A stretch of DNA of 53,730 nucleotides from a virus (IMGVR_UViG_3300003319_000115:1-53730); one strand, 5' to 3'. Shown: positions 1,576-41,044, numbered from the stretch's first letter. The notes: generated by a model from the sequence alone, not told the origin. Translations and numbers: made by a program.

Positions 1576-1905
1576 ATGAAACTAACTAAAACAGTAACTA
1601 GAGTAGAAATGGAAGATGCCATATACAACCCACCGTGGTATATGGGTAAAGCCCACACGGATTTTGATAGAGATACAATTACATATACAGTCATTCCTTT
1701 CAATGTAATTGTAGCTTTTATCAATTACCTACTTATTCAAATTCGATTTCGTTTACCTATAAATTTACAAGAAGCTGAAAAACACAATTATTATCAATTA
1801 GGTTACAAAAGGGGTTTCGAAAACGGTTGCATTAAGGGTGCTGCTGACGCTAGTGCTCATTGGACAGACAGAGTAAAAAATGGCTTACCAAAGAAAATGT
1901 CCTAA
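1576..1905 (+). CDS. hypothetical protein
   Basis: ORF in operon context. Confidence 0.6.
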   Translation: MKLTKTVTRVEMEDAIYNPPWYMGKAHTDFDRDTITYTVIPFNVIVAFINYLLIQIRFRLPINLQEAEKHNYYQLGYKRGFENGCIKGAADASAHWTDRVKNGLPKKMS

Positions 1906-21713: not shown

Positions 21714-22122
21714 GTTCCTTCTTATGACAAGATTGACAAAGGAACTCTAAGTTGTTTAAATCAAGAGCGCGCAAAGGGTGAGTGTAAATACGAAGCTTAT
21801 GATGAGCGTGGTGACCCACACAGCCACAACGATTACAGAGTCCAACATAACGCTCACGGCAACTCTGCCTAAGTATTTTCCAGGCTTCGCTCTGATAGAA
21901 TTTAGTACGTAACTTAAGATAGACATACTTTAGTTTCTTCTCGGATATACGACCTTTCCTATACAGTTCTTTATGTAACTCGATTTCTTCTAAGATTCTA
22001 AATGCTACGTCAAGAGGACCACGATAAGTTATACCACCCTTAACGGAAGCCTTCTTAGCACTAGAATCTAGTTTCTTTCTGTAAGCTGATATGTACTCTG
22101 AGTAACTCGCCATTCTAGCCAC
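21700..22122 (-). CDS. HNH endonuclease (terminase-associated type)
   Basis: FYQSEAW..LR, CNRCG...HAHH...NLEFLCQSCHKKEH. Confidence 0.9.
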   Translation of the reverse strand: MARMASYSEYISAYRKKLDSSAKKASVKGGITYRGPLDVAFRILEEIELHKELYRKGRISEKKLKYVYLKLRTKFYQSEAWKILRQSCRERYVGLCNRCGCVGHHAHHKLRIYTHPLRALDLNNLEFLCQSCHKKEHALS

Positions 22123-22336
22123 TACTCGCTAGTCTAAATTCGTAACTAGTGAAAGCTCCGTTAGGTGGTGCGGTGAAGGGCTAACTACTATGCTTCTGCC
22201 CGCCAAGTAACTGCTAACGGAAGTGCGTGGGGTCAGCATCCAAGCCTCCGTGTGGCGTGGAAAGCCCTCTACCGGGCGGGCGGAAGTGCGCGCGCTATTC
22301 GCTTCGCAAACGCTCGCTGCGCTCGCGTTTGCTCGC

Positions 22337-22687
22337 TCATGCGCGCGTTATCAAGTATCCGAGTAATGCACCACATGTGTCAGCAAGTAAGTCTCTCCAC
22401 ATATAAGGTAGCCATTGGGCGGGCTTACGTCTCCCATTGATTGCTTGAACAACTTCATAACCAAATCCGAGCGATACGGTTATAACTAATGCAGGCCAAG
22501 GTTGAACGTGAAGTAACCATACTGAACCCAACACTAACAACAAACTAATTCCAAAGTGCTCAGCTTTATCGGGCGTAAGTAAGTAATCCTTGTAACCACC
22601 AGTATCAGTATCCAGTTTAAACGCTCCAATAAGCAATAACGCTAACAAACCTAGAGCTATATAAATATTTTCTGGTGTCCAACTCAT
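22337..22687 (-). CDS. VanZ/YfiM-like membrane protein
   Basis: DKAEHF...GFGYEVVQ...WRDLLAD..GALLG with several TM helices. Confidence 0.65.
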   Translation of the reverse strand: MSWTPENIYIALGLLALLLIGAFKLDTDTGGYKDYLLTPDKAEHFGISLLLVLGSVWLLHVQPWPALVITVSLGFGYEVVQAINGRRKPAQWLPYMWRDLLADTCGALLGYLITRA

Positions 22688-22893
22688 TTTCTATTTTGCC
22701 AAAGAAAAATCGCAACGGCGCCCAAGAGAACGAGTCCGATTATGATATATACTGGACTAACAACTCCTGCTGTTTCACAAACCTGATACGGAACTCTGTT
22801 CGCATCATACGTACATTTCTGACGACCAACAAAGTAGAAGATAAGGCCTAAAAGGATAACTAAAGGAAACCCAAAAGCTAATGCTTTTTTCAT
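22684..22893 (-). CDS. small two-TM membrane protein
   Basis: Two hydrophobic helices flanking a Cys-pair loop. Confidence 0.6.
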   Translation of the reverse strand: MKKALAFGFPLVILLGLIFYFVGRQKCTYDANRVPYQVCETAGVVSPVYIIIGLVLLGAVAIFLWQNRK

Positions 22894-23096
22894 GGATGAT
22901 CTCCGACTAGTAACACAAACACGCTATGCAGGTCACGTACATAAACAGACTTACGAATAAACCATACCTTAAGCGTTGTTACTCGTCTTTCCTTATTCAA
23001 ATCGTACCAATTCCAAAATAACTCATTCATTACCTGTCTTGCATATACCTTTAGTGGACCAAAATCACTAAGGTCCATCTCATCAATGGCGGCCAT
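22890..23096 (-). CDS. hypothetical protein
   Basis: Coupled start/stop overlaps. Confidence 0.55.
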   Translation of the reverse strand: MAAIDEMDLSDFGPLKVYARQVMNELFWNWYDLNKERRVTTLKVWFIRKSVYVRDLHSVFVLLVGDHP

Positions 23097-23368
23097 TATT
23101 CCTTTACCGTATCAAGGTTACTACGTTCAACCTTCTCAATCTTACTAATAGTCACGCTAGCAGCGTCACCGGGATTGACTTTACGATTGATTAATTTATG
23201 AATAGCACTATAGAGAACTAATAACACTGCTCCACTTAAACTAGCTTCTGCTTCTGGTCCTAACGTAAAGTGCAACTTCTCAAATAAGTAAACACCCAAT
23301 GCAGCAACTAAGCCCGCTATCACACGAGCAAGAACAGGACGCAAGGTATCGAATAGTGTCAATTCCAT
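23096..23368 (-). CDS. holin-like two-TM protein
   Basis: Two TM helices and a charged C-terminus. Confidence 0.55.
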   Translation of the reverse strand: MELTLFDTLRPVLARVIAGLVAALGVYLFEKLHFTLGPEAEASLSGAVLLVLYSAIHKLINRKVNPGDAASVTISKIEKVERSNLDTVKE

Positions 23369-25105
23369 TTAACCCTCCCGCACTTTCGAGTAACCCGTCA
23401 TTGGATCAATACTAGCAAAACGTTTAGCCATTGCTTCATTTTCTTCTTCAACTTTAGTTCTCGGAAATCCAGGAACCCAAACTTCTGGACCTTGAGAAAG
23501 AGCATCTAGTAAGTGAATTTGTTTTTCGCTGATGGAACCAAAGCGACGAAGTTGGTACTCTAAATCTGAATACTCATTTTTGGGGTCTTGACCTTTGGTG
23601 TAATAAAGCGGGTTAATGAAAATCTTCCCAGCTTCTAATGGATTCGCCAGCACATCTACACGTAAAGGTTTAGCCCGCTGTAAAACGTCGAACTCACTAA
23701 CATGGAACTTAATACCTCTCGTTCTCATTTCAGCTTCCCACCAGAACTTATACAACTCTGAGAATAGAACTTTTTCAACACTTACAGCATAAGGTCTGTA
23801 TTGAGAAACTTTCTGGAAAACGAGTTCGGTAAGCTCAGGACTTGTTAATTCTTTTTGGATTGCTTCCAGAATGAAGTTTCTACGAAATTCATCAGTAGCA
23901 CTAATAATAATCCCGTTATCGCCGCCAGGAGCAGGATCGAGAAGAATAAAAACGTTGCAGTCTCTAATATTGACAATAGTCTCCCGACCTTTAGCTCCCC
24001 ATACCGTAAGCCTGTACTTATCGCGCCAACCAAAATAGCGAATCCAATCAGGATTAAACTTAGTTTGAGAATTATCCGGATCATTCTCATACTGCGCAGA
24101 GAAAACTTTACGGTTCTTCTTGAGGATTTCTAAATCTTCACTACTGACTTCTTCTGGAAAGATTGGAACTTTCTTTCCATCAATTACTTCTTCAACAGGA
24201 CGACGATAAACCTTTAATTTCTTTCCATAACGCTCCATACCGTGAGCGTATAGATCATCTACTGACCAACGAGTGCCATTCCAATCAATGCGATCTTTGT
24301 TGAATACACTAAAGAATGCTTGTGCATTGTCAAACCAATCGAATGCACTTTGCATTTCGGCAGCAGAGTCGCGGGCCTTTTCTCCGATAAGGTCATCGAA
24401 TTTCAATACATTATAGTGTCTACCCTGACTCTTAGCACCAACACCCATTGTATCGAGTGTGGGTTCAGACCAAATCTTTGTACGAGGTAACTGTAACTCG
24501 TGTTTATTGATCTTGTGAATCTTTGGGCTAGGAATGACATCAGGAAACAATGCCATTAAGATCGGATTCGAGAGGAAGTGAGTAGTAATGGAGAACAGGT
24601 ATCTACTCGCTCCCTCTTGTGTTTCGTGTCCGATTAAAACCCTAGCATCAGGGCCTAATTCCTCAGGCCACGGTAATGGATTATACGGAAGTGGATCAGG
24701 CCCTACGTATTCTTGTGATTCTCTGTCGTACTTTCTATCTTCGTCCGTGTATGGTAATACAATGCGAATAGCATCACTAATGGTAAGGATAGTAGACTTA
24801 AAGTGGTTACGAGGAAGCAGGACGAGCCTAAAACGCTCGTATCTATTGTTGTACCACCAAGTAGCAAGATTACCGTGCAGGTTAACGGAAAGACGAGTAT
24901 ACTGTAATACGGAATAAGCGAGGAAGAACAAATCTCGTTTACATCTAACTCGCGCTTCGTGCCATTGCTTCTTGGTAATGCCATGATACTTAGCGTTTGC
25001 TTCCTTCTGTTTTGTAGCAATGTTAACAGGGTCTAGTAACTTCTCCCATTCTTCATCACCAATATCTCTCTTGTGATCTTGGTGTCTATTTAGGATCTCC
25101 GCCAT
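23369..25105 (-). CDS. terL: terminase large subunit
   Basis: LLPRNHFKST Walker A, GRHYNVLKFDDL Walker B, GTRW, FSAQYENDP, LDPA and LDAL nuclease motifs. Confidence 0.93.
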   Translation of the reverse strand: MAEILNRHQDHKRDIGDEEWEKLLDPVNIATKQKEANAKYHGITKKQWHEARVRCKRDLFFLAYSVLQYTRLSVNLHGNLATWWYNNRYERFRLVLLPRNHFKSTILTISDAIRIVLPYTDEDRKYDRESQEYVGPDPLPYNPLPWPEELGPDARVLIGHETQEGASRYLFSITTHFLSNPILMALFPDVIPSPKIHKINKHELQLPRTKIWSEPTLDTMGVGAKSQGRHYNVLKFDDLIGEKARDSAAEMQSAFDWFDNAQAFFSVFNKDRIDWNGTRWSVDDLYAHGMERYGKKLKVYRRPVEEVIDGKKVPIFPEEVSSEDLEILKKNRKVFSAQYENDPDNSQTKFNPDWIRYFGWRDKYRLTVWGAKGRETIVNIRDCNVFILLDPAPGGDNGIIISATDEFRRNFILEAIQKELTSPELTELVFQKVSQYRPYAVSVEKVLFSELYKFWWEAEMRTRGIKFHVSEFDVLQRAKPLRVDVLANPLEAGKIFINPLYYTKGQDPKNEYSDLEYQLRRFGSISEKQIHLLDALSQGPEVWVPGFPRTKVEEENEAMAKRFASIDPMTGYSKVREG

Positions 25106-25619
25106 GAAGTAGCTTAACCTCGTTAGCCTTATTGAGTCCGTCTGTGAAGATTTGAGCTAATTCGGCGGGCATTGCAAAGACGGCGTTGTTTATGTTCATA
25201 TTACCACTACTAGGCTTATCCTCTTTCAAATCACCAAGACCCTTAGCAACTTGTAACGAACGATCAAACACAGCTAAAGGTGAAGATTCCATTAAGTCAG
25301 GGTTAGCTAGGACAGACTTAATATTCTTAATGGCTTGCTTCCTGATATCTTCTAACTGCTGTGGAATGTTATCAATGTTGTTCTTTCTCATTTTCTCTAA
25401 TAACCTCTCGCGAAACTCCTCCGCTTGAGGTGTATTGAGAATATTACTGATGTGTTGCTTAGTATAAGAGAGATTATGCTTTTCTCTCATCAAATCAGCG
25501 ATTTTCTGATTACCAAAGCCCGCTGATGAATAAGCAACTACAATCTCGTATTCGGGCTTCCACTTCCTAGGAACCCACCTTCTTAGAGCAGCTTTTTTCT
25601 CTGTTAACGTCTCAGCCAT
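25086..25619 (-). CDS. terS: terminase small subunit (HTH)
   Basis: G.GNQKIA...YTKQHISNILN HTH; directly upstream of terL. Confidence 0.65.
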   Translation of the reverse strand: MAETLTEKKAALRRWVPRKWKPEYEIVVAYSSAGFGNQKIADLMREKHNLSYTKQHISNILNTPQAEEFRERLLEKMRKNNIDNIPQQLEDIRKQAIKNIKSVLANPDLMESSPLAVFDRSLQVAKGLGDLKEDKPSSGNMNINNAVFAMPAELAQIFTDGLNKANEVKLLHGGDPK

Positions 25620-25743
25620 ATTTCAGTAGGGAGAGTTATTAGCTCTCCCCACGATTTAAGTCCTATCGAATTTTCCAGATGAACCGTGAATAATGCGGAT
25701 ACTACTGTTAGGCAACGCAGCTACGCGTTCCCAAAACCGAATG

Positions 25744-26475
25744 TTATTTACTGGTTCCCCCGGCTGAGCCCCCGGTTTTATTTTGCTCTGTGCTTGTAGT
25801 CTTCGGGGCTGACTGGGTTGTTGAACTAACTGAGCGGGTTCCAGCGGGCTGTTGCTTGCTCGTTGAAGAACTACTGGAAGTGGAGCTACCTGTTTCTTTG
25901 CTGCTCTCACTTTCTTTAGCGTCTGAATCACTCTTTTCATTCTCAGTCACCTTGGCATCCTCTGCTAACTTGGTGATCGTTTGCTGAACTTCTTGTGTAG
26001 CTTCACGAACGGGAGTTCCTACGTCTTGTAACTTCCGCTGTAACTCTTGCTGTTTCTCAGTACGTTGCTCAGCAAGGTCCTTCATGTACTCGACCTTCTG
26101 ATCGTTAGAAGATTCCACCTTCTCAATAAAGCCCGGATCACTCACAACAACACGATCGGGCGGAAGATCATGCTCGTTAACTTCTCCAATAGGAATAATC
26201 TTACCCTGTTGACCAAGTTTAAAAATCTCTTGATCGCGCTCGTAACGCGGATCACTACGTAAACGAGTCTCAGCTTCTAACGTATCAGATACACGCGCAC
26301 TATAAGCTGCTAAACCAACTTGAGCCGCAGCAACCATATCGGGAGCAAACTGCTCACGTTCATCAGGAGGAGCTTCGTTAAGGTTACTTCCCTCTTGAGA
26401 ACGCTCAGCACTACTCTTTTTCGTTTCTAAGTGATGTTCAGGTCCACCAGTGTGTAATGCTTCAGCCTTTGCCAT
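25744..26475 (-). CDS. low-complexity, likely disordered protein
   Basis: SD AAGGGAG before ATG 26475; Ser/Thr/Glu/Gln-rich. Confidence 0.65.
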   Translation of the reverse strand: MAKAEALHTGGPEHHLETKKSSAERSQEGSNLNEAPPDEREQFAPDMVAAAQVGLAAYSARVSDTLEAETRLRSDPRYERDQEIFKLGQQGKIIPIGEVNEHDLPPDRVVVSDPGFIEKVESSNDQKVEYMKDLAEQRTEKQQELQRKLQDVGTPVREATQEVQQTITKLAEDAKVTENEKSDSDAKESESSKETGSSTSSSSSTSKQQPAGTRSVSSTTQSAPKTTSTEQNKTGGSAGGTSK

Positions 26476-26558
26476 TTTTCGTACTCCCTTTTTTGAGTTT
26501 CTTGACGCTTTCACTAATGGCCTTCATGAAATAACCTTTCTGCTTACTTCCTTTCGCT

Positions 26559-26756
26559 TTAGGTACCCGGTAATCTTTTGCCACCTTTTAAGCCCTCGCT
26601 CGCTGATTTAATGGGCTTCGAACTACCAACACGATTCTTATGAGAGTTACCACCATTCGGGTACTTATAGGGTTTCAAGGGAGCCTGTCCGTTACCAGTT
26701 CCGTAACTCGGTTCGCTAACTCTACCACCGCCCGTTTTTGTAATGGACTTGTTCAT
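26559..26756 (-). CDS. small basic Gly/Lys-rich protein
   Basis: ORF coupled to the upstream gene; GGAGG SD. Confidence 0.55.
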   Translation of the reverse strand: MNKSITKTGGGRVSEPSYGTGNGQAPLKPYKYPNGGNSHKNRVGSSKPIKSASEGLKGGKRLPGT

Positions 26757-26968
26757 TTTGCCTCCAATTCATCAGGATTCCAAAGACGGTTAAAACCTGC
26801 TTCTCTCTGACACCAATCAGCAATTGCTTGTTCTGCACTATACCACGGACCTAACGATGGATGTAGGATACTTCTAGAACCATCATCAGGATCAACATGG
26901 ATAATCTTCCAATTGCGTGGAGAACCACCTTCAGCAATTGGAATGATTGTTTTATCAGTTTCACTCAT
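26753..26968 (-). CDS. hypothetical protein
   Basis: ATGA overlaps on both sides. Confidence 0.55.
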   Translation of the reverse strand: MSETDKTIIPIAEGGSPRNWKIIHVDPDDGSRSILHPSLGPWYSAEQAIADWCQREAGFNRLWNPDELEAK

Positions 26969-28899
26969 GCTGAAGTCCTCACATTGTAATAGTTTTCAAG
27001 CGCTGTAGTTCTACTAATTGCTTGTGAAACTAACTGGCCCGGAATACCCATTACTTTTTCTAAAGTACCCGGACCTTGAAATCTAAGCTTACTACCAGCA
27101 CTTCCATATGATCCTGAAACGAATCCATTAGATTGGTTTGTTACACCATTGATCTGCATGAATTCGTTAATACTGCCTGCTGAACCAATATGGCGTAAAT
27201 AAAATCCACGCTTAGAATTACCACTAGCTGAAACGCGAAGAATAGCAGGAGCAAAATCAATGGCAACACCACTAGCTTGCAACATTTGTAAGTTAGTAGT
27301 GCCTCCAACTAAACCATGCTCAAGTGTACCATTTCTCATCGTTAACTTACCACCAGCACCCGCAGAGAAATCAACAATAGCAAATAAACCGTGGTCCTGA
27401 TCGAACCTCATTGTAGATGCTGTTTCTAACTCTACAATGTCACTAGCGGTAGGACAGTAAATCTTTACCATCGAGCGCCCAGCTTCTGTTGTTCTTAATA
27501 TTTGTGGTGCACCTGAAATTACAACAAGTCTGGCAAAAGATGAACCACGAATATCATCAAGACTAGTAAAAAGCTCTGGACCAGATCCGCTAGAAACTAA
27601 ACCAATTCTAGGTTCAAAGAAGAAACTAACTCTAGCTCTAGCTTGAGCAAGTGTTAATGTTGGATACGTACCAGTGTGCCATTCACCTTCCCATAGAAGA
27701 TCACGAATCCAACGCTCTTGAATGTTTATTGCGCCAGTGAAAGTAACTGGAATTTCTTTATAAAGCCCGCCACCATAACAACCGAGTATTATACCACTAC
27801 CAGAAACAGCATCTATAGTGCAGATATTCTGAGTTGGTGTAGCACTAACAAAGTCAGGAACGTAAAAGCGATGTGCATTAACTGAGTCAGCAGAGAATAT
27901 GTTAACAAAATTACCTAATATCTCATGCTCAGGAGTATCACTTTCTGCTTTGAGTGCAGGAGGATAACGGCTGGTAATGTCAACTCCATTACGGAAAGCT
28001 AAAAGTTCAATTCTCTGAGAACGAGTACCTAATGGAACACTGAAACCATTTGAATCATTTACAACGAATACTGTTCCATCTTGCAGTCTACAACGAAATT
28101 CATCTGGATGTAGAACTGGTACTCCACTGCCTCTAGCATCAGCTTTTACTACTTGCCATCCTTGTGCTTCTTGATCCACAATACCAGTAGACATAGGGTG
28201 AACAAAGAACCCTATACCACTGATAAAGCCTTCACGCCAGCTAGAATAAATGGAGCTAGTTCCTTTCAAAGCTCCATTTAAACGATTGGGAACTAATGAA
28301 CCACCATCAGGATTACGTAATGTTGTGCGTGGATAGTTTAACGGATTAACAAATAGATCACCATATTGAGAGGGATTAGCAAGAATAATCCCCATCATGT
28401 AATCTAAGTACGTACTATTCCACGTATTTAATCCTGCACCAATGTTCTGTGGATATGAACGGAGCAAGTATGAAACAATAAGCTGTGTTCCACCAAGCCC
28501 GCGAACCCACGTTACATGCCGACGCCACTTAGTAAGAATATTGTCAGGACTAGTACCAAGGTTATTTAAATCATTAACACTAAAGCCGTCACCATCAATC
28601 AGGAATATGTTTAGCTTACTAGCGCTAACAAAAGGTTGAATCTCTGTAGCTCTAACAGCGTAACCTTGATCCCAATCTCTAGAGATAGCAGCAGAATTAA
28701 CGTAACTCCAATTAGCAACTTGTGCAGGATCAAGCGCTTTTAATACTTGATCCTCCATACTAATATGTGCAGGAACACCAGCATCATTTCTAGTAGAAAA
28801 GAAACTGGCTCCTGTAGCAATTACAACTCCCCCATCCGAACCATTTGGGAGACTAGAGCCAACGTCTCTCCTTCTCCTTCTGATGCTGGCGTAAGACAT
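26965..28899 (-). CDS. 644-aa protein with N-terminal SGNH/GDSL-like domain; possible receptor-binding/esterase protein
   Basis: IATGASFF (block I), VNSA (II), G..VNDL (III), VHP (V); beta-rich C-terminal half. Confidence 0.45.
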   Translation of the reverse strand: MSYASIRRRRRDVGSSLPNGSDGGVVIATGASFFSTRNDAGVPAHISMEDQVLKALDPAQVANWSYVNSAAISRDWDQGYAVRATEIQPFVSASKLNIFLIDGDGFSVNDLNNLGTSPDNILTKWRRHVTWVRGLGGTQLIVSYLLRSYPQNIGAGLNTWNSTYLDYMMGIILANPSQYGDLFVNPLNYPRTTLRNPDGGSLVPNRLNGALKGTSSIYSSWREGFISGIGFFVHPMSTGIVDQEAQGWQVVKADARGSGVPVLHPDEFRCRLQDGTVFVVNDSNGFSVPLGTRSQRIELLAFRNGVDITSRYPPALKAESDTPEHEILGNFVNIFSADSVNAHRFYVPDFVSATPTQNICTIDAVSGSGIILGCYGGGLYKEIPVTFTGAINIQERWIRDLLWEGEWHTGTYPTLTLAQARARVSFFFEPRIGLVSSGSGPELFTSLDDIRGSSFARLVVISGAPQILRTTEAGRSMVKIYCPTASDIVELETASTMRFDQDHGLFAIVDFSAGAGGKLTMRNGTLEHGLVGGTTNLQMLQASGVAIDFAPAILRVSASGNSKRGFYLRHIGSAGSINEFMQINGVTNQSNGFVSGSYGSAGSKLRFQGPGTLEKVMGIPGQLVSQAISRTTALENYYNVRTSA

Positions 28900-28951
28900 T
28901 AAGGAAGGCGGGCGAAAGTGAGAGAGGGAAGCGTAAGCATCAACACTAACC

Positions 28952-29257
28952 TTAACCCTTATTCAAATTAAACGTAAACTTAACTCCTGTTGTTCCAGCG
29001 GCACTTAGCCGAACTCCTACCCTAACAAGTCCCACAACCTCAAAGCTATAAATACCAGCCGCATTCATACTATTAGCCGACGCACCACTATTAATATTCT
29101 TAACAGGAATCACAACCCACACTGTTCCGTTAACAGTACCAACAATTTCAATCGTTCCATCACCAGACTCAAATTGAACAGCCGCTCCACCATTAATGTC
29201 ATTGACATCAAGGGGGGCGATAGAGTTGAGTGTGGTTAGAGTTTTAGAGAAGTACAT
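28952..29257 (-). CDS. small beta-sandwich virion-type protein, first gene of the late arm
   Basis: GT.EI.GTVNGT.W pattern; AGGA SD. Confidence 0.55.
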   Translation of the reverse strand: MYFSKTLTTLNSIAPLDVNDINGGAAVQFESGDGTIEIVGTVNGTVWVVIPVKNINSGASANSMNAAGIYSFEVVGLVRVGVRLSAAGTTGVKFTFNLNKG

Positions 29258-30009
29258 ATTTAATCCTAGTTATCAGTCAACGTAACTTCCCCTAAGTGTA
29301 ATATAGTTAACAGCTCAACCTAAGGCTACCCTTACCTTAAGTTATTTCCCCATGTATTTAACGAAGGGTCCTAGTTTTGCTAGAGCACAAAATGAGCTAT
29401 ATTTATCCGTCGTTACTCCCTTTAGTAACTCACTCTTAAATAACTCACTCTAAAAATGCCGCACGTTTTGTGGGAGAGTCATAATTTAACCTTTTACTTA
29501 TGAATTTCCCCCCACCCCCCTAAGTGCTATAGTGAATCGCTAAAGGACTTTGTTCGTTGTCCTTGACTAGCACCGAGTCGTGGTGTGTTCGCTGCGCTCA
29601 CTCGATGAGATTTATAAAGGTGTGCTCGCTTACGCTCGCTTTTTGCCAAAGCGCCAACAGCATGGTACGCTCACTTCGTTCGCTTTTGTTGGATTAAAGG
29701 ATTGGCTACGCGTTAACTGCATGACAGTTGCATAAAGGCTATTACTCGCTAATACCGTTCAGCAACAATGTTAACGGCCTGCGGCCCGCTTTAGTATAGT
29801 CATATTGCTAGTCTCTAGTGATACTAGATAAATGTGCTGCTGCTAACGCGGTAGCTCACGCGGGCATGTCGCACGCACGCAACAACGTTAGGCGTTAGGC
29901 GTTGTCGTTAGGCTACAGTTTGTAACGATTAGGTAACGATGCGTTGGCACAGAGTATGCCTTAGTGAAAGGTAGTTATCTTCCCTACTCACTCTTTCACT
30001 GAGGTTGCT
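29258..30009. promoter_or_regulatory. divergent control region / candidate physical genome end
   Basis: 750 bp non-coding between opposing arms; C-tract 29507-29520, duplicated taactcactct, cgttagg repeats, hairpin motifs. Confidence 0.6.
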
Positions 30010-30579
30010 ATGACGAACTGGATCGCAATCGTGATGTACATGCTTCGTGAACTCGCGCGCAACTCTGTTGTGCGTGACTTCGCCACGTTCACGCAGCGTG
30101 ACGCTATGCAGCGTGCGGACTGTGCTCGGTTGATGGTTGATTCCGAGGTGTCGCGTTTCCTCTCTGAGTTTAACGCCCGCTTTGGTAACGACCACCGCGC
30201 AATCGCTGTACACCTTCTCGCCCAGGCAACCAAGGAACAGATTCGCGAGATCGGTACGACTCCGCTGCCTCTTGGCTACACGCTGGTAACCAAGAAGAAG
30301 CGTGCTCGGCGCACACCTAAGCCTCTCACGCTCAAGAACGCTGGCCCGCGCAAGCTGAGCGCATTCGAACGTTATCATGCTGACCGCACGTTGTTCCGTG
30401 ACGAGACGGAAGTTGATTCCCAGACATTTCGCCCAGGCTATGACGGTGAGGGGGCCGTTAACGCGCGTACCGGGCGTTGTGCAGGAAGCTGGGGTAAGCC
30501 TGCTAAGGTGCGTTCGCCATTCCGAGTTATTGTCAAGTACGTGAACGGGGTTGCTTGCGTCGGATTGCCGACTAAGTAA
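30010..30579 (+). CDS. first early gene, basic hypothetical protein
   Basis: GAGGT SD, followed by a terminator. Confidence 0.7.
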   Translation: MTNWIAIVMYMLRELARNSVVRDFATFTQRDAMQRADCARLMVDSEVSRFLSEFNARFGNDHRAIAVHLLAQATKEQIREIGTTPLPLGYTLVTKKKRARRTPKPLTLKNAGPRKLSAFERYHADRTLFRDETEVDSQTFRPGYDGEGAVNARTGRCAGSWGKPAKVRSPFRVIVKYVNGVACVGLPTK

Positions 30580-30584
30580 CTTCA

Positions 30585-30626
30585 CTGAGGGGTGTGTCGA
30601 AATGACACGCCTCTCAGAAATTTTTT
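30585..30626 (+). terminator. intrinsic terminator
   Basis: ctgaggggtgtgtc-gaaat-gacacgcctctcag stem then aaatttttt. Confidence 0.7.
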
Positions 30627-30976
30627 AAAAACCCGTTCGGGATGTTACGATTGGCGAGTAAACATTAGCTGGCACTTAAGCTAACAACACTCACCTAAAC
30701 AGCTAATACGTTCGCCCGCCGGCGTAACCCAGGAGCAACAACAAGGACTGCTCGCAAAATTGCTCGCATGTTGTAGTTCTTTAAGGACTGCTCGCTAGCG
30801 CTCGCGATTGTTGAACAACGCCGGAAAGGGAAATGTGGTTGGACCAAAGGACTTGGGGTTGAAGTGCGTTTGATGAGAACAACTACTAAGCTACTACCTT
30901 ACAATAAGCCACTAAATATCTTTTGTTCGGTTCGGCCGCTTCGCTATGAAGCCGAACCTCACTCTAGGAGGTAGTT

Positions 30977-31171
30977 ATGTATCACGTGATTGGTGAAGAT
31001 TCGTTCGATAATCTACTTGATGGTGCGAGTGAAGTTTCGTACTTCTATGCGGGCTCCTACGAAGATATGGAAGAAGTACGTCATGTTTGTTGGCGCATTG
31101 ATGATTACGATGTACACGCGTTTGTGTACGATGAGTTTGGTAATGAAGTGGAAGTTCCTAATCGTCGTTAA
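30977..31171 (+). CDS. small acidic early protein
   Basis: AGGAGG SD; D/E-rich. Confidence 0.75.
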   Translation: MYHVIGEDSFDNLLDGASEVSYFYAGSYEDMEEVRHVCWRIDDYDVHAFVYDEFGNEVEVPNRR

Positions 31172-31208
31172 GTTAATTAGTTCTTTTCCACTCACTGAGG
31201 AAAATACA

Positions 31209-31553
31209 ATGTACTTCATTCAGCTTGTTGGTTCCGATCGCACGTTCACGGACATGAGCACGGTTATCGAGTCCGCTGTTTGTGATCGTTTCTCGCAGCT
31301 ACTTCAGGTGAAGCGCAACACGGACATGTACGACAACGTTCAGCTTCGTGTGCTGAAGGAGGAGACGAACTACTACGGTGATGTGAGCTACGTTGACGTT
31401 AGCGTGGACTTTCACGCACTGTTGTATGGTACGAAGAAGGTGTGCGACTTCCGTGATGACGATGATTGCACAGAAGTTGCAACGCACTCGTTCGGTTTGT
31501 ACGACGTTTGCGCTAACTGCCACCGTAAGCTTCTCGTTCAGGAGGACCGTTGA
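31209..31553 (+). CDS. early protein with C-terminal Cys cluster
   Basis: GAGG SD; C..C...CANC. Confidence 0.7.
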   Translation: MYFIQLVGSDRTFTDMSTVIESAVCDRFSQLLQVKRNTDMYDNVQLRVLKEETNYYGDVSYVDVSVDFHALLYGTKKVCDFRDDDDCTEVATHSFGLYDVCANCHRKLLVQEDR

Positions 31554-31554
31554 T

Positions 31555-31899
31555 ATGTTCGCGCTCGATAAGTACAACGCGGGGTCTATCTTATTCACTC
31601 TGGACACTGTTCCGGAGTGGAGAGAGTTAGTTGCTATTCAAAGTCTTGACCGTTTAGCCTATTCCCTGCGTATGAGCAACCTCATGCTTGTTGAGGATTG
31701 CGTTGACTTAGTTAAGTTTCAGAGTCCAACAGAACTCACGTACAACAGCTACGTAGGCGATTACGAAGAGGATTTCGACTTCAACGCAGAGTGGGCTGAG
31801 TACGAGAGGGACAGGTACACGTTTGCGGGGGACACTGAGGACGAAGAAGATAACTACGTAGAGTTCCTTGTAGAGGAGGGAACAGACGACGAGTTCTGA
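31555..31899 (+). CDS. acidic early protein
   Basis: AGGAGG SD; very acidic C-terminus. Confidence 0.7.
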   Translation: MFALDKYNAGSILFTLDTVPEWRELVAIQSLDRLAYSLRMSNLMLVEDCVDLVKFQSPTELTYNSYVGDYEEDFDFNAEWAEYERDRYTFAGDTEDEEDNYVEFLVEEGTDDEF

Positions 31900-31984
31900 G
31901 TCACACTGGAGACTGAGTGTTCGGTTAACTACTAACTGGACACTCAGTTCCCATAAACAGCTACAGTGACAGTGCTACCAACTA

Positions 31985-32090
31985 GTAACGCACTATTACT
32001 TAGTAACGTGCTTCGGGCTAGCTCCACGTAATGCACTATTGCTTAGCAATGGCACACCAGTACGGTTCACGTAACGCACTATTGCTCACC
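31985..32090. repeat. three 43-bp-period repeats with conserved gtaaYgcactattRct core
   Basis: Cores start at 31985, 32028 and 32071. Confidence 0.8.
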
Positions 32091-32498
32091 ACGTGCCTCA
32101 CACTACGCTTCCCGTACCACGCTTAACCCCCGTGTCGCTGGATGATACCAGGAGCGGATTTTTTCGTTTTGTTAAGTTGTACTCACTGTGTTTACTTACT
32201 ACTACGTTCCCGTTCGTTGTGGCGCTTACGCTACTACTCACATTCCCGTTCGCGTTGCCCCTTCGCTTCGCTACGGGGGGCAACACTCACTAGGAGTTGG
32301 TTATGATTATTATAGATTCGAATAGAAGAGGTGAGATTTTTGTATTTGTTGAGGTTAACAAACATTCAAGCGCTCACACTATATTGAGCAAAGAATGTGA
32401 AGAACCACCAGACAGAGCACAGATCAACATGCGCGAATATACAATCTATAAGTTTACTAATTCAAAAAATATTCCTCAACTTACACTATACCTTTAAA

Positions 32499-32846
32499 AT
32501 GTCTAATCAGGTCGAAGTCACTGGCGATTTTCTCGTGAACATGGCTCAGAAGAACGACATTTTGCTGTATCGTGCAATTCTCTATATTAACAAGCGTTCC
32601 GGTTGGAGTGAGAATCACAAAAAGTTCATGAACTCGCTTGCTACGAGGATCGAATTTAAGCTTAATACTGAGAGTGATAACGTACTCACTTCCAAGCAAC
32701 TCGAAGTTGCTCGGCGCATTATCACTCATTACGGTCCGCTGCTTCTATGTGCGCACCATGAGAAGGTTGAGATGAGGAAGGAGAGAAAGAGGAATAGTGG
32801 TGTTACTACTAACAACACTTCCAATGATTCGATTCAAGCGGCATAA
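32499..32846 (+). CDS. hypothetical protein resembling the N-terminal module of some phage SNF2 helicases
   Basis: GW....F..SLA....LT.KQ...ARR....Y...L pattern. Confidence 0.55.
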   Translation: MSNQVEVTGDFLVNMAQKNDILLYRAILYINKRSGWSENHKKFMNSLATRIEFKLNTESDNVLTSKQLEVARRIITHYGPLLLCAHHEKVEMRKERKRNSGVTTNNTSNDSIQAA

Positions 32847-33853
32847 GACAGTAAACAAACAGACAATTCACGTATTCAATGTGAACGGGGCTGAAGTTGA
32901 GTTTAACGTTAGTGAAAACGTTTACTGGTGTCACGCTTGTCGTACTGACAACTGTCGTCATATTGAAGCTCTTAGCTCTCACGATTATGACTAAAAACAA
33001 GTGTCCCAACTGCAACAAGTTCGTCGGTAATAGGCTCGTGTACATTGTCGAGTATTTCGTCAATCGTGTATTCACCTATAAGTTTCAATGTAACAACTGT
33101 CGTTCCTTTTCCGGTATCGTAGTTGGCTTTACCACTACTCACATTAAGTAATTATGCGATTCTCCGAGGCTTGTGAACGTGCATTCTCTGAAGCAAAAGA
33201 GCAGCGTGATACATTCGTAGTTGTTCAGGTTACAACTCAGATTGATACAACTTTCGGTTACATGCACCAAAGGGAATACACCGGCTCAAACGCTGTTGCA
33301 GAAGCAATCAATCTCATTGTAGACGGTCCGGTTTCCGTAATTATCGCTGCAACCATTCACCCAATTTAACTATGTTCTGGTTCGAAGTTTGGTTCAATGG
33401 TGATCGTGGAAAGCGTTGGTTTTGTTTATGTAACGTTGAGTTAACCGTAGTAGAGTCAATGGAGTTGGTTAGTAAAGCTCGTTCTGCTCTTGGTATCTCT
33501 GGTAACTCCACTTACGAATTCACCCTCAATCCAGCAAAGTAATGACTAAGCGAAAGCCTTATACACAGAATGACGCTCGTTACGATATTAGCATTGCTCA
33601 GAACTTAGTTAGTAATGCAGAGTATTTGGAGCGAGATGCTAGTGATTTCAGTGTATCACTCAGTGAATATTCTCGTATTACTTTGCGTAGTCAAGCAATG
33701 CTAATGCGTAGTCGTGCGAACAGAAAGCTAAGTAAGGTTCGTGGCGCAGTTATCAACTGTGTCAGAACGACACGCCCAGAGAAGTACCTAGAACTACTTG
33801 ATGCGTTGAATCTTCCCTTTGTCTTGAGGGAGGGTATTGACAACGAACCCTAA
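32824..33853 (+). CDS. run of small early ORFs (32824-32994 SWIM-like Zn finger; 32987-33151 CxxC Zn ribbon; 33154-33369; ~33372-33542; 33542-33853)
   Basis: Tightly packed ORFs; WCHAC....CRHI and CPNC...CNNC motifs. Confidence 0.6.
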
Positions 33854-33862
33854 ACTTGGCTC

Positions 33863-33891
33863 TTGACTTTTTCGTTGTACCATGTTATATT
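33863..33891 (+). promoter_or_regulatory. sigma70-type promoter, extended -10
   Basis: TTGACT-17bp-TATATT with TG; same architecture at three other sites. Confidence 0.8.
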
Positions 33892-33958
33892 ATAGTCGTG
33901 GTTCGGTTGCTGAGCACCCTGTTCAGTTAACCATTAACCGTTTTAAGAGGAACTAAAA

Positions 33959-34360
33959 ATGCTTCTCGTTAAGGACACCATTAAGGGAAAGAATGTTGCC
34001 GCCGAGGGAGAGATTCCTGAGCAGGAAATCGAAGTTGAGATTCTTCAGTGTGAGAATCTTGAAGAGTGCATTCAGGATGCTGGTAGCGAGAATAACCTTC
34101 GTGATGCGTACAACGATCACAAGCGTAATCGTGCGCTGACTGCTGGACGTAATCAGTATCGTAACGCTCCGAAGGGAACGATTGTCAGTGAGCTTATCGA
34201 AAAGGTTAAGAACACTGTCAAGAACTTCTCGCTCTCTGAGTCTGAGCGTGGAATGGGCGTTAAGAAGAAGGCTGAGAAGGTTGATATGCTCAAGGCCGCA
34301 CTTGAGGCTGGTAAGGAGTTTTCGCGTGAGGAACTGCTTGCGATGCTGGCGAGTCGTTAA
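33959..34360 (+). CDS. monocistronic hypothetical protein, probably highly expressed
   Basis: Own promoter, AGAGGA SD, downstream terminator. Confidence 0.8.
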   Translation: MLLVKDTIKGKNVAAEGEIPEQEIEVEILQCENLEECIQDAGSENNLRDAYNDHKRNRALTAGRNQYRNAPKGTIVSELIEKVKNTVKNFSLSESERGMGVKKKAEKVDMLKAALEAGKEFSREELLAMLASR

Positions 34361-34370
34361 GGTTAGTTAG

Positions 34371-34440
34371 AGTAAGTTAAGGGTACTAAGTGATTGAGGT
34401 TTATTTAGCTCACTCACTTAGTACCCTTAATTTGCTTTTA
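34371..34440 (+). terminator. long hairpin / terminator
   Basis: agtaagttaagggtactaagtga ... tcacttagtacccttaatttgct followed by T-rich sequence. Confidence 0.65.
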
Positions 34441-34474
34441 ATTACTTGTTACTTCACGTTCGTTTGTGTCTTAT

Positions 34475-34746
34475 TTATTTCCCCATATTCCCTGTATTCC
34501 CATGGAACACGGGGAGAGAGATTGGAGCTTGGTTGTCTCTTTTTTCGGACACTGTATCAGTTTGACACACCCTAGGTCGCTTTTGTAACAATTTTATATA
34601 TTAAAAAAAAAAAAATAAAAAAGAAGAGAACAGGCACAGAACTTGAGCAGAGTCAAAATGACACAGGGAGATAGTGTATCAGAAAGACACACTCAACTAA
34701 CCTTCTCCCCGTGTTCCCCATTTTTCCAGGGAATATAGGGAAATAA
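34475..34746. repeat. bipartite long inverted repeat around an A/T core; candidate replication origin
   Basis: 34475-94 vs 34727-46 (1 mismatch); 34504-17 vs 34704-17 (perfect); A13 tract at 34603-15. Confidence 0.7.
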
Positions 34747-34751
34747 CTCTA

Positions 34752-36795
34752 ATGATTGAAGATAATAAAGATATTCAATGTCAAGGTTGTGGTAGAAAGT
34801 TAGAGAAGGATGACATAAATAAAGTAGATGAGTTAATTCTCTGTTTGTTTTGCTTGCCGAGTGTTGAAGAAATTAAAGAGTTCTACAAAAGGAAATAACT
34901 AATGCTCAATTATTATATTACTCCACGTTATGAATATACAGACCTATTGTGGATGATTGGTGTAGCTTGGGAGACTCATAATTATTATAACTATCAAGCT
35001 TGCATAGAACTCGATCTTCCACAATGGATAGTTAAATGATTATTAAGATTGGAGCATATAGGATAAAATTAGAGTTCAAGATTTATAAAGTTAATAAGCG
35101 AAACCAGCAAACAGTTATGAAGAATCTACCCTTCATATCTGAGAAGGATATATATATGACAAGAGAGGAACTCGAGATGCTAAATGAGAAAGTCAGAAAC
35201 TATAAGCTATAACTTCACCGACTTTTGGTACATAGCTCTAATTAGTACTCTCGGTGAGTGTTGGGTTAAACACAACTATAAGACTTATAATTACATTCTT
35301 ACTAACAAACTCAATGAGCTTTCAAGAAGAACTAACCAAGCTAACTGACACTCAATTGGCAGCTAGAGCAGCTGATGTAATTATGGATATTATTAGCAAC
35401 AACATGAGTCGCTCCGTCGCTGAGTTAAAGCTTGGTGATATCACGTACGAAGCAAAGAAGAGACAGACTGAGAAAAAGAAAACACTCAACTCACTATGAT
35501 TATCAACGAAAATGGCGAGCTTGATCCATATATTCTAGCTCGTACAGAGTTAATTAACGCTATTAACGCAGCTGATAAAACTACATATTTCGCTGCATTT
35601 CCAGAAAAGAAAGATAGAGCAATAGCTACTGTATACATTCTCGAAGATATAATCGAAAAGTTTGCAGGAAAGTTATTCTTGCAAAAAATCATTAACAAAG
35701 AATAAACAATGAAAAAAGTATTCTTCGCCAAAGATTATACGAAAGCCGTAGCGTATAAGGAGAATACTTATCCCTCCATTATGGTCCGAGAGCTTCACGC
35801 AACTCTGGGACCACTTTATGTGATTATTCCGGTGCCCACAAAAGAACGTTCACCTTATAGGGACATTGATTAAAATGCACCCAAACGAGCCACTTTTGGT
35901 TACCAACGTCGGTTGGAATAATAACGTTCCAACTTACGATTATACGAACGATTTCAAGCGTTTAGAGAGTAATGCATTTCACCTCGATTATCTCGATTGG
36001 AAGGGTTCTACCAACAATCCTGATTATCTTCGCGTTCAAGCTATGGATGCACAAGCAATGCGTCAGGCTTACGAGATTCTTGGTGTTGTTGAACCTTCAC
36101 CTGAACTCTAATGGCCCAAACACTAGAACAATTAGAGTCACTAATTAACGATGTAGCACTAGAATTAGGCAAGACTCTATTCTCACTCAAGCCCGGAATG
36201 TTTCGAATTTATTATGATAGTTCTTTGGAATCTTTGTTCAAGATCAAGGGTGGACCTCTAGTTGAAATCTACTTAGGAATCGGTCCCAACGACAAGGATT
36301 TCCGCTACGCCATTTTCGATTCCTTGAAGCAAGTTAAGTCGCTATACAAGCCAATGGCTTTGGTTCCTTATACGTTGAGTAAAAAGGATAAAAAGTCTAA
36401 ACTCAAAAAGGAACGTTGGGAACCTGAGTTTAAGCTTGACGAACGCCGCGTGCGCTTCACCACAAAGACAATTACGGAAGTAACAGCTACAGATCGCTTT
36501 ACAAATATTTCCGTAACACTGAAATCGAGCAAAATCAACGATATTGCGCTTAAGGAAGAGGCGCTAATTATTCTTTCACGTCGTGTTGAGTCCTACTATG
36601 AATCTCAAGCTGACGGACAGTGAAATTGAAGATGGTTGGACATTCAAAGTAGAATACAAAGGAACTTATGCTTGTTTTTATAGTTTCCATTCAGCAGCAC
36701 TAACTTACGCACGTCAGCTTAATGAGTTTAGTGCTATCGCTCCTAAATTCTACGTAAATTTTAACTACACTTGGATCGAACTCACAGCCTTGTAA
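34752..36795 (+). CDS. run of small hypothetical ORFs (e.g. 34752-~34902 CxxC protein, 35314-35499, 35496-35705, 35875-36111, 36111-36623, 36598-36795)
   Basis: Consecutive, often overlapping start/stop codons. Confidence 0.55.
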
Positions 36796-36800
36796 CTAAA

Positions 36801-38873
36801 ATGCCAAACCCACTCGACGATTACGATAAGGAAGAGGCTGATCTTCTCAAGCGTATTGAAGAAATTCGCCGGCGTAAACAGCTAGCTGAGGAGGCTTTGA
36901 AGAATAGCATTAAGCCTCTGTTGCTTACGGTGAATGAAGTTTTGGGCAAATCCTATGTCCGTACAAGGGTTAATGAAGCGCGGGCTGATTTCATTGCTGT
37001 GTGTTCGCGAATTGCTGAGCGTACTTATGTAGAGCAACAGCGAGTTAATAACATTCCCTTGCTTTATTGGAATGATTTTCTTACTCGCGTTCAAGCCCTT
37101 CCCGAAGTAACTATCACTTACGATCTTGGTGTTGAGGACGAGATTAAAGCTATCACAGAAGGTCCACGCTTTTTCGTAGACATTAAAGACGGAAAGTTTA
37201 CAATTCAGTGTACAGTTTTCGCAAAGAATAAGTGGAAGCTATATAACATTCCTTCTGCACACCAGAAGCATAATCAGTCCTTCTGGACAGTGAGCATGAG
37301 CGAAGCTCACTTGGTTGCGGAAGCTTTAAAGGACGAGCATGTTGAGTACACAGAGAATGCTTCCACATTTATTGAAGAAAGGGTTCGTATTAGAGCCCTA
37401 ATCGACGTTATTGCTACGAAAGAGGACACTGATCTGGTTCTCGATCTTAATGGTAACTCTCTCCGTAACTTCCAAAAAGTTGGCGTCGAATTCATTAATG
37501 CCGTAGATGGTAACGGTATTATTGCTGACGAGATGGGTCTTGGAAAGACTCCACAGGGAATTGGTGCGTGTGTATTTAATAACTGGCGCACCCTTGTAAT
37601 CTGTCCTGCTTCCCTAAAGACTAATTGGTACCGGGAAATCTACAAGTTCACCGGAAAGCAAGCTACGGTTCTGTTCGGTAGCATTCCAGATGAATACGAC
37701 ATTGTTAAACTCATTGTCGATAAGCCTACTTGGACGATTGTCAACTATGATATGATTTCGAAGAACGTCGATATTATGGACGACAAAACCAAAGAGAAGG
37801 TTAAAAAGTGGCCTTGGATTGATCTAATTAATATTGCAGGGTTCGATGCAATCCTGATTGACGAGGCGCATTACATTAAGAATGTGGGGAGTTTGCGTTC
37901 TCAAGCGTCCAGAATGCTTAAAGCCCCACACATTATGCCACTCACCGGAACACCATTGATGAATCGGCCTTCTGAACTCTGGCCCCTTCTTACGATGGTT
38001 GCTCCGAATCAGTTTCCCAGTTATGAGCAGTTTACGTTGCGTTACACTCACGACGGAAAGGAGGCTCGTAACGTTGAAGAACTCAAAAACCTACTTAAGT
38101 CCTACATGATTCGCCGTCTCAAGCGCGACGTAATTAAGGAACTTCCTCCAATCAATCGCATTTACGAAACTCATGATATGAGCGACGAAGCGATGAGGAA
38201 GTATAAGAAAGTGTTACAGGGGATTTATGAAGTCTTGGCTACTTATAAGCCCGGCCATGCTGGAGAGGAATGGAAAGTCACTAGTATTCTAACAGAGATT
38301 ATGCGTTTGAAGCAAATTTGTTCAGACGATAAGCTTGATAGGGCTAGTGAGATGGCGATTGAGCTTTATGATAGTGCGGACGTTGATGATCCAAACCGCA
38401 AGGTAATCATTTTCTCTCAGTTCGAAGGAGCAGTAAAGGAAATTGCAAAACGGCTTGGACATGAAGCGGTTTACTTTACAGGAAGTAATCCGATGCATGA
38501 ACGGACGAAGCTCCAAGACGAATTCCAGAACAACGATAAAGTTAAGTTCCTTGTAACAACAATGAGAGTTGCAGGAGAGGGACTAAACCTTACTCGCGCT
38601 GGAAGCGTGATCTTCGTTGATCTTGGTTGGACTCCTGCTATTCACGAACAAGCAGAAGCACGAGCTTATGGTAGGTTGTCGAATCTTCACTCTATCAACT
38701 CCTACTATCTAATCGCCTCCAACACTATCGAAGATTGGATTCAAGAGCTTTTGGCAATGAAGATGCGAATTATTACCGAAGTTGTCGAAGGCGTTAAGGA
38801 AGTTCGCGACTCCGATAGCTCTATTGCTAACGAAATCATTAAGCGTCTTAAGGATCAGATGGGGAGAGGTTAG
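36801..38873 (+). CDS. SNF2/SMARCAL1-like SF2 helicase
   Basis: IADEMGLGKT, ICPASLK.NW, IDEAH, LTGTP..NRP.EL, GEGLNL, QAEARAYGR. Confidence 0.93.
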   Translation: MPNPLDDYDKEEADLLKRIEEIRRRKQLAEEALKNSIKPLLLTVNEVLGKSYVRTRVNEARADFIAVCSRIAERTYVEQQRVNNIPLLYWNDFLTRVQALPEVTITYDLGVEDEIKAITEGPRFFVDIKDGKFTIQCTVFAKNKWKLYNIPSAHQKHNQSFWTVSMSEAHLVAEALKDEHVEYTENASTFIEERVRIRALIDVIATKEDTDLVLDLNGNSLRNFQKVGVEFINAVDGNGIIADEMGLGKTPQGIGACVFNNWRTLVICPASLKTNWYREIYKFTGKQATVLFGSIPDEYDIVKLIVDKPTWTIVNYDMISKNVDIMDDKTKEKVKKWPWIDLINIAGFDAILIDEAHYIKNVGSLRSQASRMLKAPHIMPLTGTPLMNRPSELWPLLTMVAPNQFPSYEQFTLRYTHDGKEARNVEELKNLLKSYMIRRLKRDVIKELPPINRIYETHDMSDEAMRKYKKVLQGIYEVLATYKPGHAGEEWKVTSILTEIMRLKQICSDDKLDRASEMAIELYDSADVDDPNRKVIIFSQFEGAVKEIAKRLGHEAVYFTGSNPMHERTKLQDEFQNNDKVKFLVTTMRVAGEGLNLTRAGSVIFVDLGWTPAIHEQAEARAYGRLSNLHSINSYYLIASNTIEDWIQELLAMKMRIITEVVEGVKEVRDSDSSIANEIIKRLKDQMGRG

Positions 38874-39063
38874 CTTCTAACAAGTTCACGTTGTATGGTG
38901 CCCTTCGCTAACGCTACGGGGGCACCATACAACTTAGTTAGGAACTTATCTCGCCATTGTTTAGTGGGTTGGCTACTCACAACAATGGGATAAGTTAGCC
39001 TAGCCAGCTAACGAGTGCGAGCCTGAACTCGCCGAGATAAGTTTCTCTTATAGGATATAACTC

Positions 39064-40949: not shown

Positions 40950-40988
40950 TTGGAGCGGTGTTATTACTCTCTACCTTCTATTTAGACC

Positions 40989-41017
40989 TTGACAAAACCA
41001 GCCCCATGTGTTATATT
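40989..41017 (+). promoter_or_regulatory. sigma70-type promoter
   Basis: TTGACA-17bp-TATATT with TG extension. Confidence 0.8.
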
Positions 41018-41044
41018 GGGTTCACAACCCAACCCACACTAAAA

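Follow-up and report, generated by a model that had tools for sequence, protein, structure and literature searches.

The uncultured phage record IMGVR_UViG_3300003319_000115, a stretch of 53,730 bases that was analysed in its entirety and is called the window here, carries a family of short hairpins with tandem G·A steps, which is the subject of this report. The window has a GC content of 41.8%, and a terminal overlap of 24 bases at the ends of the record indicates a circular assembly. Minus-strand genes run leftward from 29257 to 3052 as a 26-kb late operon, and plus-strand genes extend from about 30010 through the end of the record to 3049. The nine hairpins, designated a to i (Table 1), are spread over 17 kb, and the analysis establishes that they form a real, base-paired, strand-specific and conserved family.

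Nine hairpins on one strand

All nine hairpins listed by a first-pass annotation of this DNA were found where it had placed them, on the minus strand. Our own gene calls confirm that they are intergenic, and they keep to the same strand whatever the local gene direction, as had been claimed, since e to i lie in plus-transcribed units and hairpin a lies in the minus-strand operon. The tip of hairpin a, GCGAGC-GCA-GCGAGC, occupies 22312-22326 (22311-22327 in the annotation); the hairpin begins one base past the stop codon (22337-22339) of a 116-aa gene and is located about 170 nt upstream of the HNH gene. Hairpins g and h lie about 6 nt and 8 nt upstream of the ribosome-binding sites of plus-strand genes (ATG at 30977 and 32303, respectively), and hairpin i is found between two plus-strand genes, the SNF2 helicase gene, which ends at 38873, and 39064-39408, with a T-run on neither strand.

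The loops are GCA in a and b, GTAA in c, GAA in d (where the closing pair is A-T/C-G), GCTA in f, GAA in g and h, and GTTA in i. A GNA or GNNA loop closed by GC..GC, the rule for DNA mini-hairpins, is thereby present in eight of the nine window copies, the exception being hairpin e with its AATTTT loop, and two of the three tetraloops (GCTA and GTTA) obey this DNA rule and not the GNRA rule of RNA. Hairpins b to f have a common 3' flank, R-N-W-C-C, and a 5' flank resembling CAACA, which are absent from hairpin a and from the copies in related phages.

The strand specificity and the abundance of the family both stand up against shuffled sequence. A generic scan of the whole window for the pattern NN-GA-NN, a loop of 3-6 and NN-GA-NN, with four Watson-Crick pairs, returned 12 tandem-GA hairpins on the minus strand vs 1 on the plus strand, and 7 vs 0 when at least three G-C pairs were required. 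In 300 dinucleotide-preserving shuffles the minus-strand expectations were 3.46 and 0.39, respectively, and no shuffle reached the observed 12 or 7. Similarly, the heptamer GCGNAGC occurs 18 times on the minus strand (6.7 expected; 0/300 shuffles) and twice on the plus strand (6.45 expected), and within the block of plus-strand genes it is over-represented in antisense (8 vs 2.42 expected, P=0.004, 500 shuffles). Sliding-window DNA folding did not single out the mini-hairpins, and a k-mer screen for strand bias was uninformative because codon bias dominated it.

Table 1. Hairpins and associated genes of the window
Feature	Coordinates	Strand	Description
Hairpin a	22289..22346	-	long imperfect hairpin; outer GCGCGC stem around three GCGAGC words and one GCGAAGC
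Hairpin b	29587..29601	-	GTGAGC-GCA-GCGAAC; 3' flank ACACC
Hairpin c	29624..29639	-	GCGAGC-GTAA-GCGAGC; 3' flank ACACC
Hairpin d	29669..29683	-	GCGAAC-GAA-GTGAGC; within a block of ~55 nt conserved with relative L236
Hairpin e	30750..30767	-	GCGAGC-AATTTT-GCGAGC, then AGTCCTT; loop not of GNA type
Hairpin f	30790..30805	-	GCGAGC-GCTA-GCGAGC, then AGTCCTT
Hairpin g	30929..30958	-	8-bp outer stem, GCGAAGC mini-hairpin tip
Hairpin h	32254..32284	-	8-pair outer stem, tip GTAGC-GAA-GCGAA
Hairpin i	38890..38933	-	11-bp outer stem, tip GTAGC-GTTA-GCGAA
DUF3987 (SF6, MCM-like) replicative helicase	1880..3049	+	PHROGs label 'DNA primase'; only the helicase part present
189-aa gene	30010..30579	+	between both hairpin clusters; genuine reading frame
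Minus-strand gene order, start		-	101-aa ORF; 644-aa SGNH-esterase/lectin-like protein; small ORFs; small and large terminase subunits
Minus-strand gene order, then		-	four small ORFs; HNH gene; portal; head and other virion genes; 1969-aa virion protein
Plus-strand contents		+	SNF2 helicase, DpdA, Cas4-like nuclease, Sak4, three tRNAs
Plus-strand contents, continued		+	split family-A polymerase with UDG-like domain; DUF3987 helicase

Several short words recur around the hairpins. AGTCCTT is found on the minus strand at 29549, 30749, 30789 and 30853, that is directly after e and f and again near b; in the relative L008 (~7360) it lies 20 nt past the hairpin, and in L037 the reverse word AGGACT follows the hairpin twice. 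On the plus strand, CTCACTCT is present at 29429, 29444, 29987 and 30958, with a variant at 32285, directly before the ribosome-binding sites of early plus-strand genes, and hairpins g and h are each followed by CTCACT(C)TAGGAG and then ATG. Right after hairpin i, a 13-nt long-range inverted repeat (AACTTATCTCGCC / GGCGAGATAAGTT, 38945-38957 with 39030-39042) encloses about 70 nt. In addition, ATAGCGAAGCGAAT at 39256-39269 on the minus strand is a hairpin of the family type, antisense within the coding sequence 39064-39408.

Pairing and conservation in related phages

Because GCGAGC-N3-GCGAGC can be read either as a hairpin or as a direct repeat, pairing was tested. As direct repeats about one helical turn apart, the GCGAGC words would be duplex DNA binding sites for a phage or host regulator, placed in control regions and before the portal gene, an explanation that appears improbable. 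It would account for the word GCGAGC being more conserved than the loops, for the distances of 9-12 bp between word starts, for runs of three words in hairpin a and of four in the relative L236 (starts spaced 10, 11 and 9), and for the location of sites in a divergent control region. The variant words, however, always keep pairing. The only ones in the window, GTGAGC and GCGAAC, are combined in b and again in d, with their order swapped and both pairs kept, and the L236 ortholog of hairpin d is GCGAGC-ACA-GCGAGC, which upholds the compensatory stem changes noted in the first-pass annotation.

Megablast detected no named phage relatives, and the terminase identity in tblastn was at most 27%. 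Related phages were gathered through the terminase, giving IMG/VR loci L001-L040 (439 kb) and JGI loci (570 kb). Both outer pairs of the core GAGC-N3-4-GCGA are Watson-Crick in 10 of 28 terminase-sense occurrences vs 0 of 14 antisense ones in the IMG/VR set, and in 8 of 26 vs 0 of 15 in the JGI set. This amounts to 18 fully paired cores in terminase sense and none among 29 in antisense, with a chance expectation of 1 in 16; the two sets overlap, with a few rows containing the same phage twice, and about 14 of the fully paired cores are distinct. Two cores (L025 at 3674 and L037 at 5584) lie inside long open reading frames (ORFs) and may be due to chance. The outer pairs vary among the relatives, including GC/GC, GG/CC (L012), TT/AA (L034) and AC/GT (L037). 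A pair count on 14 picked hairpins found four of five pairs changed on both sides, a score reached by 0/500 shuffles, although this count is circular and not independent because four of the five pairs had to be Watson-Crick when the rows were picked. A check free of this bias used 84 distinct instances of the exact core taken from unrelated viral contigs; 32 of them have a Watson-Crick first flanking pair (null 18.5; 1/1000 shuffles), and a further 29 have a G opposite an A there. A duplex repeat operator leaves the covariation unexplained.

Counterparts of hairpin a are present in L008, L012, L022/L024, L034, L037, L040 and L288/L301, where they lie on the sense strand, in spacers of the packaging/portal region. 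As in the window, the core of L034 and L040 forms the tip of a longer G·A-rich hairpin, and L034 has an additional neighbouring hairpin of the h/i type. The closest relative, L236, whose terminase is 55% identical, has four GCGAGC..GCGAGC hairpins at 1308-1443, within a control region that aligns with 29.3-30.0 kb of the window and lies between a divergent gene and a leftward operon homologous to that of the window. The block conserved between the two phages reads CAATCCTTTRATCCAAC..AA-hairpin-GTACCWTGCWGTTG, and in the enclosed hairpin one pair is changed on both sides. Among phages whose terminases are only 37-55% identical, the hairpin family has been kept with compensatory changes.

In the relatives, all copies lie in or just upstream of the late operon and in sense orientation. 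This points to another explanation, doubtful though possible, in which the leftward late operon would use the hairpins as cis elements at the level of RNA or transcription, folding in its leader and intercistronic spacers, either as processing or stability elements or as put/nut-like anti-termination sites of the 26-kb operon. Tandem GA flanked by C-G is a stable motif in RNA as well. The restriction of fully paired cores to the terminase-sense strand agrees with such a role, as do the positions in late-gene spacers (45-55 nt upstream of the portal start in L008 and L037), the location of hairpin a right behind a stop codon, and the similar placement of array b-d and of its counterpart in L236, each of which precedes the first leftward-operon gene by about 410-430 nt within a control region homologous between the two phages. 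It is harder to reconcile with hairpins e to i, which are antisense to the local plus-strand genes: i is between two certain plus-strand genes, and g and h are just upstream of plus-strand ribosome-binding sites. In addition, GNA triloops are described as weak in RNA in a review of DNA mini-hairpins (PMC13037366), which gives a Tm of 70-76 C for d(GCGNAGC) vs 39 C for r(GCGAAAGC). Rfam 15 at the gathering score matched the three tRNAs and none of the hairpins, and these have no U-tracts, although the phage has ordinary T-run terminators elsewhere. An RNA role fits a to d and all the copies in relatives, but not e to i, whose loops suit DNA better. Intrinsic termination was considered separately: none of a to i appears among the terminators listed, those that the phage does have (30585, 34375, 40030, 52155 and 3180) contain T-runs, and the terminator reading is excluded because the hairpins lack them.

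The distribution of the family also raises the question of mobility. Copy numbers per relative are patchy, ranging from 0 to 4, and the expansion in the window falls in its hypervariable early region, in which no gene has a homologue in 12 relatives. At 21700-22336, the HNH gene and hairpin a take up a position at which just 47 nt separate the 116-aa homologue from the portal gene in L006/G004; they look like an insertion. Such features could be expected of selfish or recombination-prone elements that resemble REP or GC clusters and sit where variable DNA is joined, comparable to the cassettes of T4-like phages discussed below, and any function would be secondary; spreading or exchange as single-stranded DNA would then explain the single orientation. 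The flanks shared by paired window copies (AGTCCTT in e/f, ACACC in b/c and CCCCGTAGCG in h/i) are in line with this, and so is the occurrence of the exact 15-mer in many other viruses, including one 54-kb contig with 8 copies. Nevertheless, this origin seems unlikely. At 55% terminase identity, the ortholog of hairpin d and about 40 nt of flanking sequence have been kept, with a compensatory change in the stem, which indicates purifying selection; the 15-nt unit is very small, no target duplications were seen, and general Pfam scans returned no transposase or HUH/Y1 domain, though no six-frame search was aimed at that family. No gene was found exclusively in the hairpin-bearing relatives, and HNH genes are present both with and without the hairpin.

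Possible single-stranded signals and the question of priming

The interpretation ranked first, though held only tentatively, is that the hairpins serve as structural signals in single-stranded form, on the strand unwound as the lagging-strand template. With respect to the late operon of terminase and structural genes, this fixed strand is the sense one, and it would be the lagging-strand template if the fork travels in the direction of late transcription. On unwinding, the GC pairs, the tandem sheared G·A pairs and the mostly GNA/GNNA loops would fold into compact hairpins, which the complementary strand, with T·C mismatches, would be unable to match. These hairpins may remain free of single-strand binding protein and might mark loading places for a structure-specific protein, most likely the host primase or primosome, as at the G4 origin or RSF1010 ssiA. 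By this route a phage with an MCM-like helicase, and without a primase of its own, could start complementary-strand synthesis. This reading accounts for the uniform strand and for the loop types. Priming has the best precedent among the conceivable uses, and the relatives argue that it would not be obligatory.

The first-pass annotation had stated that the phage has no visible primase, and this holds at the profile level. Pfam revealed no primase domain in 58 ORFs at E<=0.01 or in 25 ORFs (14 of them new) at E<=1, and six-frame searches with PF09250 (Prim-Pol), PF13155 (Toprim_2) and PF01807 (the DnaG zinc ribbon) yielded nothing; the 'DNA primase' label in PHROGs rests on the DUF3987 part alone. 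DUF3987 is described as an MCM-like SF6 helicase that is usually partnered with a primase (PMC4889955, PMC11724360). The first-pass annotation is borne out with respect to the absence of a primase domain and the reality of the family, but the link between the missing primase and host priming at the hairpins is weakened. All five complete relatives that have the same helicase and polymerase are likewise without Prim-Pol or Toprim_2 matches, and they contain only 0-1 GC-rich GA hairpins, with GCGNAGC unbiased between the strands (10/11, 7/5, 5/5 and 13/7). A missing primase does not predict hairpins, because these five primase-less relatives have neither the hairpins nor the strand bias; it is a family trait, and the hairpin expansion is not.

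These results from the complete relatives weigh against the single-strand interpretation, and other points have to be set beside them. There is no conserved primase start trinucleotide and no shared CTG beside the hairpins, and the GC skew simply follows gene orientation. The octamer GCGNNAGC is unbiased (15 minus vs 16 plus), and the advantage of the minus strand in nearest-neighbour DNA energy is only about 0.1-1.7 kcal/mol (-21.4 vs -19.7 kcal/mol for hairpin a), although the parameter sets omit the special stability of mini-hairpins. Of the four L236 loops (TGCT, GACC, GCA and ACA) a single one is of the DNA mini-hairpin type, and the sense orientation of the relatives' copies at the late operon fits an RNA role equally well. 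Finally, the core shows no uniform orientation in other viral contigs when set against crude ORF calls.

The known systems provide both likenesses and differences. The DNA mini-hairpins d(GCGNAGC) and d(GCGNNAGC) studied by Hirao and colleagues, as presented in the review PMC13037366, have two G-C pairs that close a GNA/GNNA loop with a sheared G·A, and this is the tip of eight of the nine window copies. In the window the tip is lengthened by a tandem G·A step and two pairs, the arm GCGAGC is itself conserved, and some loops in relatives are non-GNA. The precedents cited in the first-pass annotation agree with the same review, which places mini-hairpins at the G4/St-1 origin (GCGTTAGC), at ssiA and at the N4 promoters. 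The complementary-strand origins of G4, St-1 and alpha3 and the RSF1010 sites ssiA and ssiB are clusters of stable hairpins on the strand that needs priming, with loop types like those of the window, and GCGTTAGC of St-1 is present in hairpin i. Those sites, however, act on true single-stranded DNA genomes or a plasmid origin with a known primase, whereas the window genome is double-stranded and its copies are dispersed.

Early promoters of coliphage N4, which are read by its virion RNA polymerase, share with the window a small GC-rich hairpin with a G-N-A loop that is far more stable on one strand. In an N4-type scheme, supercoiling would extrude hairpins on the template strand, to be read by an RNA polymerase of the phage. 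The loops match those of N4, hairpins e to i are on the template strand upstream of plus-strand genes, and on the template 4-5 A and then a C come after c and d, as described for N4 (PMC4496689). Nonetheless, neither PHROGs nor Pfam identified an RNA polymerase; T7-like motifs are missing from the 1969-aa virion protein, which resembles polyvalent virion proteins, and the 644-aa protein looks like an SGNH esterase with a lectin part. The stems, 6+6 with mismatches, differ from 5-7 Watson-Crick pairs, and hairpin a together with all the relatives' copies would drive antisense transcription into the late genes. As a form of the early transcription suggested in the first-pass annotation, N4-type promoters are thus very unlikely, given the lack of a phage RNA polymerase in these searches and the position of the conserved copy, which for the late genes is the non-template strand. 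A search for repeated long k-mers found no phage-promoter-like repeat, and the T7-like look of CTCACTCTAGGAGG and CACTATAG was dismissed as unsupported by any polymerase gene.

Two classes of repeated elements are also comparable. The PeSL cassettes of T4-like phages (PMC4122927, PMC2839356) are, like the window hairpins, short conserved stem-loops that border variable genes in hyperplastic regions, but they contain a sigma-70-type promoter and follow gene direction, whereas the window hairpins are all on one strand with no such promoter adjoining. Promoter-like sites in 21.5-39.5 kb number 30 vs 31.3 in shuffles, and none of them abuts a hairpin. REP/BIME elements with RAYT transposases resemble the family in being intergenic, imperfect, strand-specific multi-copy hairpins; they act as single-stranded DNA, as is proposed here for the window copies. 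No RAYT-like gene was found in the window, however, and the hairpin unit is half the size and occurs in many kinds of viruses.

The exact pattern GCGAGCGNAGCGAGC, the 15-mer core, is present in at least 130 stretches of other viral contigs in IMG/VR, many of them AT-rich. Among the matches listed, 36 of 84 distinct contexts are in loci with GC <0.45, some in giant-virus bins, and at such a GC content a chance occurrence of the core is very unlikely. Also among the matches listed, the 47 instances in loci with GC <0.5 comprise 16 inside a called ORF, 8 with both neighbours antisense, 4 with both sense, 7 after a same-strand gene that faces a convergent one, 1 between divergent neighbours and 11 with one side unknown. 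Because the ORF calls are crude, no orientation rule can be drawn for other viruses. None of the papers in the collection searched contains the 15-mers.

It is conceivable, with considerable reservation, that viral DNA is widely marked on one strand by this hairpin word of about 15 nt, a signal read only when a particular strand is single-stranded, which unrelated viruses from soil phages to giant viruses use for priming, protein loading or exchange of gene cassettes, without a dedicated enzyme encoded alongside. To our knowledge, signals that exist only as folded single-stranded DNA amount to a handful of cases, namely the G4 origin, RSF1010 ssi and the N4 promoters. Its conservation with compensatory changes, its placement on one strand regardless of gene direction and the exact core in many unrelated viral contigs are what make the family of interest here. 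If the hairpins mark priming or loading sites, they would reveal how lagging strands are initiated in phages that have an MCM-like helicase but lack a primase; if they are mobile or recombination elements, they would represent a new class of small repeats that shapes viral genome mosaicism. In either case, the hairpin is a short sequence open to biophysical and genetic assays.

Some of the contigs with the core were inspected further. The 54-kb contig mentioned above, an unrelated AT-rich IMG/VR contig of 54,335 bases (L128-L133), has its eight exact cores at 18620-32838, on both strands, at gene ends and in gene direction, and PHROGs gave 1 match, of unknown function, among its 13 ORFs. Two other contigs that contain the core are small and look circular; an HMG box was the sole Pfam match in them.

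Neighbouring genes and minor features

The 189-aa gene overlaps an antisense ORF (29929-30585) that is its shadow, with a codon score of -0.19 vs +0.18. The plus-strand frame is taken as real and the minus-strand one as not, on account of this score, of a ribosome-binding site and of the strong terminator with a T-run at 30585-30617, located behind the gene.

Among the plus-strand genes, the family-A DNA polymerase is divided into two ORFs, 52427-53730 with 25-436, and 550-1395; the polymerase has the UDG-like domain at its N-terminus, and the first ORF crosses the ends of the record. A DpdA-type DNA transglycosylase (40254-41365), of the kind involved in 7-deazaguanine DNA modification, adjoins a GNAT acetyltransferase gene, and neither gene has a homologue in the 12 relatives compared.

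In the late operon, the 1969-aa protein of the virion module (3052-8961) has no Pfam or PHROGs match, and its nearest neighbours in a protein atlas are large polyvalent-protein families (LPD3, LPD38, PBECR3, MuF_C). The 644-aa protein (26965-28899) is also without a profile match; language-model features and an Atlas structure model suggest that it resembles SGNH/GDSL esterases with a LamG-like domain, and it is probably a receptor-binding or depolymerase protein. Searches with the 644-aa protein, the terminase and the 189-aa protein singly retrieved nothing from viral and metagenome contigs. The stretch is present, in each case as contigs, in four runs of one root-metagenome study, two of them possibly the source, and no RNA data set is listed among those containing it. 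These contigs showed no hairpin variants and no ends, and are uninformative on expression, termini and habitat.

Beside hairpin h, a gene-free stretch of 400 nt holds three direct copies of AATAGTGCRTTAC at 31985-32090, spaced by about 35-40 nt. These repeats resemble iterons and may represent an origin or a set of operators.

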